In this document: positions 57,545-61,601 of the stretch, one piece after another
How the letters are laid out: each line of letters opens with the position of its first letter
How positions within the stretch are numbered: position 1 is the first letter of the stretch
NCBI GenBank assembly: GCA_963813715.1
Contig: CAWFAK010000017.1
Location: 1,024,001-1,088,000 of the forward strand
Source of the DNA: an uncultured Planctomycetaceae bacterium
Lineage (GTDB): Bacteria; Planctomycetota; Planctomycetia; Planctomycetales; Planctomycetaceae
Length of the DNA stretch: 64,000 bases
Direction: 5' to 3'
Notes under the pieces: model-generated
What the model saw: only the letters and a program-made list of their open reading frames with translations
Told to the model about the DNA's origin: nothing
Databases searched by the model: none
Position numbers and translations under genes: made by a program

Positions 57545-58109
57545 GTCACTCCCTAGGGCGACTGAGGAAGGTGCGCCGGCTTCCGATCGCTTGCCGGCCT
57601 TCTGCAATTCCAGCGACTCGCTGAGCGGCACGGAGGACCAACAGATCGACGACCGCCCAAAGCACGGCGCGACCGTTTTGGCAAAATGGCGCCACTTGGA
57701 CTCGACAACTTACTCCTTACGAGTTCGTTGCTCCAAGCCTGTGCTTCATCCAAAGTCGAGACCCGGATTTTACTTATGGCACGAAACGCCTTCAACTCGA
57801 ACGGATCGAACTGGAAATCTGACCTGCGAAGGGCAAGGGGATCGTCAGGCAAGATCGAGCCCCGGGCTGTGCTGACTTCCGAAAAAACTGATCTTGGCCG
57901 ATTTGGACTTTTGTGGCTGAATGTAGGGAGGGGCTTTGGCGCGAGCGGGTTGGTGGCGCGGTTGGCCGAAACCGGGCGCGGTGCAGTAACGAAACGTCAC
58001 CGAAAGGGCGTGTGGTGTGGTCACCTTCTTCCCCAGGTAGTTGACCACGAGAATAGTTGACCACAGGGTCACCGGCGAGACCGCATCCGTTCCGGACAGG
58101 TTTGTCGAC

Positions 58110-58810
58110 GGGACGGGAATTGGGACGGGACTCGACGTTCTATCGAGCGAATCCCGAGGAATGCGGATGACTCCGATAGTCGGCCGCCCGTCTGGCCTCC
58201 GTTAACCGCGGCGGGGGGATGGGGACGAGACACGGACGCGACCCGGGAAATTTGGCCGGAACCACGGGACGGGACACGTTGTTTTACCGGGCGAATCCCG
58301 ACAGATTCTTCCGGAACTGCGCTGGTCGACGCCGGTCCGGAGTCCGTTCGGCTGGGACGGAACTCGCGGGACGGGACTCGGTCCTCTGAGCGAGCCGGTG
58401 CAGATCACGAATATCCGGCCGGTCAGATCTGTCACGCGGCGCCGACGATTAGGCCGCCGGCCGGACCCCGAAAATGCTCTCTCTGCTGGTGGTGGGGATC
58501 CGTTTTCATATAGGGGAGGGAAAGATCCCCAGCAGCCTTCGTTGCCGGCGTCCGCCATGGGCCGGGCGGCACGGTGGGACAAGTGGACCCGCCGGGACAC
58601 TCGAAAAGTGGACCCGCCGTGACGGGACTCTCTGATTTGATATAAGGGGCCCCGCCAAAAGTGGTCCCACCGCGGGCCCTGAGTGGCAGGCCACGGCTCG
58701 CAGGCGGATCAGAGCGGCGCGGCGGGAAGATCGCCGGGGACGAAAAAAGGATCCCCGCCGGGCCGCCGGGGTGGGGATTCTCTTTTTCACTCAGGGGAGG
58801 GAACATCTCC
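58110..58810. repeat. Non-coding tract with several families of short direct repeats (iteron-like)
   Basis: About 7 GGGACGGGA(CTC)-like units, 3 AAGTGG(A/T)CCC(G/A)CC units, and a ~40 bp imperfect repeat at 58491 and 58770. Confidence 0.7.
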
Positions 58811-58857: not shown

Positions 58858-59358
58858 ATGCAAGACGATGTCGTGGCGTTGTTCGCGTACGATCGCTGGG
58901 CCAATGCCAAGGTCCTCGACGCTTGCCGCAAGCTGACCGCCGAACAGTACGTCGCGGAGCCGGTCCCGGGGTGGTCGTCGGTGCGCTCGACCATCTACCA
59001 CATCGCCTGGGTGACCGATTTCCACCTGCGCACGCTGGCCGGCGATCCGGATGACAGCATCCCGACCGAAGCCGACCTGGCCACGGTGGACGACGCGGCC
59101 CGGTTGCTGGAGCGTGCCTACCGCCGCTTCGAGGAGCTGCGTCCCACGCTCACGCCGGAGCGGCTCAACACCATGCTGACGCTGCGCGGGCGCGGCTCCA
59201 CGTTGACTCTGCCGCGGTGGGCGATGCTGCGCCACATTGTCAATCACTCCACCTACCACCGCGGTCAGGTCGCCTCCAAGCTGAAACGGTTCGGGATCGA
59301 ACAACCGATCTCCGACTTCTTCTTTTGGGTGATCGAGCAGATTCCCCAGGAGGCATAA
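58858..59358 (+). CDS. DinB family protein
   Basis: YDRWANAKVL, SVRSTIYHI and HIVNHSTYHRGQV; GGAGG RBS. Confidence 0.9.
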   Translation: MQDDVVALFAYDRWANAKVLDACRKLTAEQYVAEPVPGWSSVRSTIYHIAWVTDFHLRTLAGDPDDSIPTEADLATVDDAARLLERAYRRFEELRPTLTPERLNTMLTLRGRGSTLTLPRWAMLRHIVNHSTYHRGQVASKLKRFGIEQPISDFFFWVIEQIPQEA

Positions 59359-59660: not shown

Positions 59661-59700
59661 CAAAAACAAAGCGGCACGGTCGGCTGACCGTGCCGCTTTG
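59661..59700 (-). terminator. Rho-independent terminator downstream of urtA (probably bidirectional)
   Basis: Perfect 15 bp stem CAAAGCGGCACGGTC / GACCGTGCCGCTTTG with a 4 nt loop and a T-tract on the minus strand. Confidence 0.88.
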
Positions 59701-59731
59701 CGCTCCTTGACGAGAGCAAGCGAGGCCCGCG

Positions 59732-61207
59732 TTATTTGAGGCCTTTGGCCGTGCAGAAGGCTTTGAAGTCCTGCACGAACTTCTGGTTTTCGGGCGAGTC
59801 GATGCTCTGGAAGTAGTTCCAGGCGGCCAGGTGGCCGACCAGCGGCGGAACGTCCATCGCCCGCAGCTCGTCCTCGGCAACCGAGAACGCCATGATCGGG
59901 CAGTCGACGGCCGAGAGGCCCTGGTTGGCGAATTCCTTGTAGAACGGCACGTTGCTGTCGCCGTTGATCGTCGAGAGGACGCACGCACCGCCGCCCGAGG
60001 CGAAGGCCTTAATCTTCTGGACGATCGTCTGATAGTCCTGGTGGTGGAACGGCGTGTACTCTTCCACGATGTTCTTGTCCGGAATGCCGCGGAACTTGAG
60101 GTACGCCTTCAGCACTTTGTTGGCCGTGCGGGGGAAGACGTAGTCGGTCCCCAGGAGGTAGAACTTGCGGAAGCCTTCGTCGAGCATGTAGGCGGCGGCC
60201 GGGTTGAGCTGCTGGTTTGGCGGGGCGGCCGTGTAAAAGACGTTCTTCGACTGCTCTTCGCCTTCGTACTGCACGGGGTAGAAGAGGAGCGCGTTGAGTT
60301 CCTCGAACACCGGCAGCACCGACTTGCGGCTCACCGAGGTCCAGCAGCCTTCGACCATCGCCACCTTGTCCTGGCTGATGAGCTTGCGGGCCTTTTCGGC
60401 AAACAGGGGCCAGTCGCTCGCCGGATCTTCGATCACCGGCTTGATCTTGTAGCTCTTGCCGCCGACCTTGATGCCGCCGGCGTTGTTGATTTCCTCGATG
60501 GCGAACAGGTCCGCGTCCTTGAGCGACGTTTCGGAGATGGCCATCGTGCCGCTGAGCGAGTGGAGGATGCCGACGCGGACGGTGTCGTCCGACAGATCGG
60601 GGCTGGGATAGGTCTTGCCCGGCTGCGGGCCGCCCGTGGGCGCGGGGTAAATGCCGTCGGTGCCGGTCAGCTTCGGATCGTGGAGGTACTTTGAATAACT
60701 ATCCGGCTTGACCAGGCCCTTCATCGCCTTGACGATTTTGAACTGGCCGTTGCGCTTGATCTCGCCGATGTAGACCGGCTTGTAGACGTGCTGGTTGACC
60801 GGGTCCATCTTCTTCTTGCCGCCCGGCGCGTTGAACTCGAGGCCATAAACGGCCTGGCGGACTTTGTCGACGTCGAAGGAATCGGCCTTTTCGCAGGCGG
60901 CCGCCCAGACCTTGATCCCGTAGTAAGCGGCTTCGATCGGGTCGTCGGCAACGCGACCGGAGATATCGGGCAGGTCTGCGCTCTTGGCGGTTTCGACGAA
61001 CTCGATATCCGGATCTTCTTTGATTTCGATGGCGCCCTTCTTGGGACCCAGCGACAGGGCCGGCGCCAGCGTGCGCTGCACGTCGGCCGCCGAAGCCAGA
61101 ACGGTGACCTTGCCCGCGGCGGAGGGCTGTTGTGCGTCGCTACGCACGCCGAAGCCCGCCAGCAGCACGCCGGTCCCCACACTCGCCCAAAAACAGAACT
61201 TCTTCAT
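59732..61207 (-). CDS. urtA: Urea/short-amide ABC transporter substrate-binding protein, circularly permuted
   Basis: Signal peptide; [63 protein letters not shown] and [11 protein letters not shown]. The block that is normally C-terminal (DDPIEAAY...[13 protein letters not shown]) comes first. Confidence 0.9.
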
Positions 61208-61585
61208 TACGCCTGTTTCCTTCTTAGAAAGAGAGCCCGAAGCAGAATCCGACCGTCCCTTCGCCAACACGGTTGCGCGTCCTTGCATCGGCCACGCGGA
61301 CTGCGAATCATCTCGCCCATCCGAGCGGCGAGTCGAACCCGTGAAGCTGCAGCGCGTGCGACATTGGCTCGAACGTCCTGGTCCGGCGACTCGCCCGGAG
61401 CGCTCCTCGACGGCGGGACGGACTTCGAGACAGATGTTGAAACACGATACGGAGCGGGCGGCAGCGATTTTGGAGAAGCGGGCGAACGGCCCTTGTCAGC
61501 CCAGCAGCGCGCTTCAAAACCGGTCGCTTAAACGCGCCGGTTCGCTGGCCGCTCACCTCAATGGATTCAAATCGTCCAGGCAAAA

Positions 61586-61601
61586 AGCAATTTCAATGCC
61601 G
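61586..61601 (-). promoter_or_regulatory. Sigma-54 promoter for urtA
   Basis: Minus strand CGGCATTGAAATTGCT (GG-N10-GC, with TTGC). Confidence 0.75.

Follow-up and report, generated by a model that had tools for sequence, protein, structure and literature searches.

At the level of sequence, the gene at positions 59732-61207 (minus strand) of the window, by which we mean the whole 64,000-nt stretch of DNA that was analysed, is confirmed as a circularly permuted UrtA, in which the canonical last quarter of the protein now stands in front. It is a single uninterrupted frame of 491 aa, running from the ATG at 61207 to the TAA at 59732-59734, and its parts follow one another as signal peptide, spacer, canonical C-terminal block (block B), linker and canonical N-terminal block (block A). 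The first-pass annotation had proposed this order, with pairwise alignment against UrtA as a check, and the alignments bear it out: four solved UrtA proteins match the gene product in two stretches of swapped order rather than in one collinear run. For 8tg1, residues 84-173 of the gene product correspond to chain residues 284-373 (E 6.8e-25), and residues 204-482 to chain residues 9-278 (E 2.3e-102); 8hic and 7s6e give the same swapped pattern. No collinear alignment of the product to a solved UrtA was found, and block B lies ahead of block A, the reverse of the canonical A-then-B order.

Chain order, junction and urea pocket

The TIGR03407 (UrtA) profile scores 524.2 bits with the gene product, above its curated cut-off of 492.75 bits, and the score is split over two stretches; Pfam and NCBIfam likewise each match the 491-aa protein in two stretches. 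Annotation pipelines overlook the rearrangement because the summed profile score is still above the cut-off. In the numbering of the canonical protein P0045, the swapped blocks cover residues ~316-420 and then 30-310 of the parent, with about five loop residues lost or replaced. The old termini are covalently joined within the one frame, through the native TGGP tail, 14 new residues and the first strand.

The features of the locus, all on the minus strand, are as follows. A ribosome-binding-site-like AAGGA, read from the sequence, lies at 61218-61222, 10 nt above the ATG, and the start methionine of close homologues matches the position of this ATG. Residues 1-25 (61133-61207) form a probable signal peptide, judged by sequence shape and by comparison with relatives, and are followed by a variable spacer (residues 26-83; 60959-61132), of which the last ~25 residues are conserved in a subclade; in the AlphaFold2 model the spacer has a predicted helix at 40-52 and confident blocks at 61-80. 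Block B (residues 84-175; 60683-60958), placed by alignment to solved UrtA, is the canonical C-terminal quarter and includes hinge strand 3, its domain and hinge limits being transferred through alignments from those given in passages of PMC10392092. The native C-terminal tail (residues 176-194; 60626-60682), which ends in PAPTGGP and carries a short clade-specific insertion, was delimited by comparison of canonical tails, and the new linker from the old C-terminus to the old N-terminus (residues 195-208; 60584-60625) by comparison with permuted and canonical representatives. Block A (residues 209-491; 59735-60583), also placed by alignment, is the canonical N-terminal three quarters and holds all nine urea-pocket residues. 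The new stop codon (59732-59734) comes straight after GLK, at the old A-B loop, as read from the sequence and homologues. Beyond it is a terminator-like 16-bp hairpin with a U tract (59662-59701), with a folding z of -5.45 and 0 of 200 shuffles folding as well; it is absent from the list of the consensus terminator scan.

The block limits of the first-pass annotation (block B 60958-60683, tail and linker 60682-60584, block A 60583-59735) hold, and its proposal that the chain was opened at the loop after KAFC..KGL is supported by the alignments and the homologues. The junction that it described also stands, but not the length of its new linker (~33 aa): tail and linker together are 33 aa, of which about 19 (H...PAPTGGP) are the native tail of the closest unpermuted relatives and about 14 are new, so that a wholly new linker of this size is rejected. 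All of the 124 canonical representatives tallied end in the TGGP tail, and residues 176-194 are thus native, with only 195-208 new. The new linker has a length of 14-15 aa in 33 of 37 permuted representatives (those measurable by pattern), a comparison with canonical ends did not turn up its GKxYP-like word, and its sequence is under weak constraint (pN 0.17-0.24 vs pS 0.32-0.36).

The cut takes the place of a short loop that led from the helix now ending at residue 487 to the one now starting at residue 88, and corresponds to position ~320/321 of 8HIC. According to the domain limits given in passages of PMC10392092, it falls within the second N-lobe segment, which would leave all three hinge strands intact. 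The linker would connect the C-lobe tail with the first N-lobe strand. We propose that the protein would be exported and fold into the normal two-lobed shape; with the hinge strands uncut and the cut in a surface loop of the N-lobe, the new linker would tie the old ends together as a fourth covalent connection, and the protein would close on urea and pass it to UrtBC.

The UrtA ligand pocket is defined by published mutants, and the nine urea-pocket residues are, in 8HIC numbering, W120, S122, Y141, Q144, E146, Y190, F192, N246 and S274 (both from passages of PMC10392092). All nine are present here, as W289, S291, Y310, Q313, E315, Y356, F358, N415 and S442. Among representatives with the same chain order as this gene (type 1, below), eight of the nine are found in 33 of 33, and F192 in 32 of 33. 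The AlphaFold2 model (33 aligned sequences) has a pLDDT of 81 and a pTM of 0.83 (linker blocks, 81-96). Order-keeping structure aligners matched only model residues 207-491 to UrtA, with block A superposing on 8tg1 with a Z of 22.4 and an rmsd of 2.9 Å over 269 residues, and none of the solved structures listed aligned across both blocks; for the model, this partial match is as a permutant would give. A single-sequence fold prediction was uninformative (pLDDT 36).

The protein is like UrtA (TIGR03407; PDB 8HIC, 7S6E, 7S6F, 8TG1; PMC10392092) in its score above the family cut-off and its full pocket, and also in that relatives of the gene sit in urtABCDE-urease operons. It is unlike UrtA in its B-linker-A chain, with the cut and the 14-aa link described above, and in that the locus is unlinked from urtBCDE in this gene's clade.

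Conservation of the permuted order

The first-pass annotation had advised a check of the junction for misassembly and a search for its homologues elsewhere. An assembly artefact is vanishingly improbable: the assembly does have frameshifts at other places, which would favour one, but a gapless 942-nt contig from another run (X1) spans 60300-61241 and differs by 15 substitutions, and the same order, each time with a stop codon of its own, recurs in dozens of divergent homologues (66-89% identity). The signal-B-linker-A-stop order occurs in 32 of the best 120 homologue clusters (8000 scored), and a DNA pattern for the tail-to-first-strand junction recovers 34 metagenome loci, 33 of type 1 (some of them cut by contig ends) and one of type 3. 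Misassembly is rejected by the homologues, the metagenome loci and the X1 contig taken together.

Of 151 genomes from the same family, 7 have a match that crosses the junction and one has the close canonical form; the named relatives are Planctomycetaceae. The exact junction pattern has 0 matches in 400 other genomes of the phylum (20 of this family), which shows that it is rare, at least in this sample. The best identity in a plasmid search was 64%, the block order of the matches being outside that comparison. Blocks A and B have 38 synonymous and 0 non-synonymous differences from L013, and pN/pS values against L116 of 0.015/0.30 (block A) and 0.038/0.47 (block B). Judged by these differences, both blocks are under purifying selection. 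The permutant is real and conserved, and it is probably functional.

Three cut points and their origin

The junction search revealed two further block orders in the same subfamily. Type 1, which includes this gene, is cut at ~310/316 in P0045 numbering, type 2 (P0040, P0124 and cluster members) at 168, and type 3 (P0119, P0125, L119 and members) at 216-224. Every type comes with a signal peptide and a stop of its own, the cuts all fall in loops of the AlphaFold2 model, and all 37 permuted representatives end in Lys.

Trees were based on 362 reference-anchored core columns, with the linker excluded, the frameshifted L044 left out, and 305 rows reduced to 136 and then to 46. Types 1 and 2 each form a clade, and type 3 is nested among canonical Planctomycetia genes. 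Monophyly is rejected for all permuted types together (p-AU 2.3e-5) and for types 1 and 3 (p-AU 0.0035), but not for types 1 and 2 (p-AU 0.129) or types 2 and 3 (p-AU 0.109). These trees support at least two origins and are compatible with three. A GKxYP-like linker is common to types 1 and 2, which argues for a shared junction, and all three linkers begin with GGPxxG and are of equal length. Type 2 is nearest to canonical proteins, not to type 1, in all four segments, and these per-segment identities give no support to a chimeric type 2 assembled from type-1 and canonical parts. In a 129-aa fragment (P0282), a type-1-like linker leads into a first-strand region that is closer to canonical or type-2 proteins; the fragment may link types 1 and 2.

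We consider the most likely origin, and a reasonably probable one, to be duplication, fusion and deletion. A tandem duplication of urtA would be followed by in-frame fusion of the copies through the C-tail, and then by deletion behind the first signal peptide, with a new stop in the second copy; this process would have run at least twice in the subfamily, leaving three cut points. The permutation by duplication model, known for DNA methyltransferases and saposin/swaposin (passages of PMC3320104), starts from a tandem pair. The subfamily resembles it in having several cut points and a tandem pair beside one permuted lineage. This pair is that of L044, a frameshifted sister lineage and the closest unpermuted relative of type 3, in which two canonical urtA genes (94% identical, 141 bp apart) lie in tandem above urtB, a situation found at 1 of 72 canonical loci. 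Among 73 sequences, both type-3 halves have these two copies as their best DNA matches, and the type-3 signal/spacer region matches no others; the halves are not sorted between the copies (89.3 vs 88.3%; 90.3 vs 90.1%). A tandem precursor for type 1 was not seen among the 72 canonical loci.

Unlike the methyltransferases, for which fused and half-trimmed intermediates are documented (passages of PMC3320104), the UrtA lineages have no such forms among the matches listed. None of 86 longer proteins covers the junction as a fused tandem intermediate would (at most 58% of the region is covered), and an exhaustive search for fused forms gave only distant head-to-tail repeats (24-52% identity, with a different linker). 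A further difference from the duplication model is that the new start would have come from deletion behind an existing signal peptide, and not from a new start codon. Distant proteins have up to nine head-to-tail UrtA units, which suggests, from sequence comparison, that the UrtA fold tolerates an end-to-end join. Nine such units, or two ~750 aa apart, occur in P0279 (3745 aa), P0289 and P0290, and in P0283-P0285, P0288 and P0382, and an 855-aa protein (P0354) has an arginase-family domain fused to a UrtA-like domain. An out-of-frame relic of the old stop in one type-3 linker was dropped as a candidate, being too short and present in one lineage only.

The junction might alternatively have been made only once, by one ancient fusion or through a circular DNA intermediate, with types 1 and 2 (and type 3 by gene conversion) as re-cuts of it. 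This is possible but doubtful. It would explain the GKxYP-like linker that types 1 and 2 have and canonical ends lack, and the common GGPxxG start and length of all three linkers, although equal length could also reflect the distance between the old termini. The trees cut both ways, since they reject the grouping of all three and that of types 1 and 3 but neither the pairing of type 2 with type 1 nor that with type 3; the nesting of type 3 among canonical genes, and the closeness of type 2 to canonical proteins in all four segments, argue against a single junction.

Natural permutants usually have distant parents. In B. subtilis OpuAC, the halves are presumably swapped relative to ProX (a natural half-swap for which the passages searched gave no confirmation). 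Like OpuAC and engineered permuted sensor modules, the permuted UrtA is a two-lobed binding protein that tolerates relocated termini; unlike them, it has very close unpermuted relatives (84-95% core identity) and a pocket mapped by published mutants. The combination of three cut points, close canonical relatives and a tandem pair makes this subfamily a natural test case for a change of chain order, in which one can test both duplication as the source of permutants and whether the change is neutral or under selection for tether position, opening dynamics or affinity. Permuted urea biosensors could also take their design rules from the natural linker and from the three sites at which a cut is tolerated. 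Permuted binding proteins have been used as engineered sensor modules (passages of PMC3454389). Circular permutation and UrtA are each well known; no permuted UrtA or natural permutant of the UrtA family was found in the full texts searched, which take in few subscription journals, and the case is absent from the matched passages of PMC8694067, PMC3454389, PMC10087775 and PMC2861598.

Genomic setting, lipid anchor and function

The genome (7.49 Mb, 82.6% complete) is of Planctomycetaceae type, and no second UrtA was found in it. Contig C8 has urtB and urtD above the cut-off, in a urtBCDE cluster without an adjoining urtA, and also carries ureC. In none of 7 permuted-gene genomes searched with TIGR03407 was a canonical UrtA found. 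In L016-L019, L090 and 17 of the 33 metagenome loci, the permuted gene is the first of a urtB(CDE) operon. In a genome of the same genus (G062, 98% complete), neither UrtA nor an above-cut-off UrtB was found.

A promoter-like 14-mer (-24/-12, GG-N10-GC) lies at 61587-61600 on the minus strand, 393 nt above the start; we take it to be of sigma-54 type from its consensus, and it presumably acts as a promoter. The identical 14-mer has exactly two copies in the 7.49-Mb genome, one above this gene and one 248 nt above urtB on C8. G125 has two matches to its degenerate form, at the same two places, and similar motifs lie ahead of most permuted genes and of the detached urtB of G535 and G536. Two copies of this 14-mer type are also present in G062, in which neither urtA nor an above-cut-off urtB was found, and so the motif type is not exclusive to urt. 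The first-pass annotation had read the gene as intact, with a promoter and a terminator; the intact frame, the conserved gene and the terminator-like hairpin stand, but a sigma-70 promoter is rejected (0 found in a consensus scan, 0.5 expected). Between the 14-mer and the start codon is a leader of ~370 nt (61223-61586), which has an 11-mer in common with the urtB upstream region and shows single-base indels in related contigs, suggesting that it is non-coding. A structured RNA in this leader is rejected, as no part of it has an Rfam match; the two sub-threshold matches obtained lie on the terminator hairpin only.

As far as sequence goes, the gene is very probably a functional natural permutant of UrtA that serves the unlinked urtBCDE under nitrogen-type (sigma-54) control, and its product in all likelihood acts in trans, as a free and exported binding protein for urea. 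Some observations weigh against a functional gene. RNA-library contigs, which cover flanking DNA as well as parts of the gene but do not extend over the junction, give no evidence of expression, and this assembly has frameshifts in urtC-D and in ureC. The frameshifts are probably assembly errors, for urtC-D because G125 breaks elsewhere and G536 has the stretch whole; a search of G125 (87% complete) and G535 gave no ureC. In the Planctomycetaceae operons of L016 (4649-6988) and L168 / G536:C1, urtC and urtD are seemingly fused into one ~780-aa frame; in G000 and G125 this stretch has frameshifts, at positions that differ between the two.

The subclade P0001-P0005, which includes this gene, lies outside the urt operon and has lost the lipobox Cys; this gene has LAG-F-G where lipoprotein relatives carry LAG-C-G. 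Both the detachment from urtBCDE and the loss of the Cys weigh against a role in the importer, and a real protein that is no longer the importer's binding protein, being detached and delipidated and serving a receptor or binding another amide, is an alternative to which we give little credence. Its orphan position, with a DinB-family gene on one side and a DUF58 gene on the other, would fit this alternative, as would the ~800-aa proteins with UrtA-like domains that are common in the family, but no receptor gene adjoins, searches of these genomes gave no second UrtA, the pocket is complete, a 14-mer is common to the gene and urtB, and sister permuted genes lie within urt operons. Among same-family genomes L136-L155, many frames of ~800-950 aa have a UrtA-like domain (39-50% identical), and are possibly sensor proteins.

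In the subfamily as a whole, one pattern rule, used for every row, finds a lipobox-like Cys in 31 of the 37 permuted representatives and in 13 of the 124 canonical ones; a stricter rule finds it in 24 of 37 and 16 of 124. Within type 1, 27 of the 33 representatives have it by a simple pattern rule. This enrichment, which rests on two or three origins, hints that either a long, loose lipoprotein tether eases the deletion or relocation of the anchor is useful. In its extended form, the latter idea makes permutation a recurrent route for relocating the membrane tether: three separate tandem duplications, each in a lipoprotein, would have taken the anchor away from the first strand and placed it on a surface loop, in the N-lobe for type 1 and in the C-lobe for types 2 and 3, and the canonical gene would then have been replaced as the new tether suits UrtBC docking. 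We regard this as unlikely.

Elsewhere in the window, intergenic short repeats at ~58000-58800 belong to dozens of copies, 75-90% identical, across the genome. An 82-nt stretch within the DinB-family gene (~59205-59286) is 93% identical to G000:C5:1406139-1406219, which lies ~2 kb from a branched-chain-type ABC operon.
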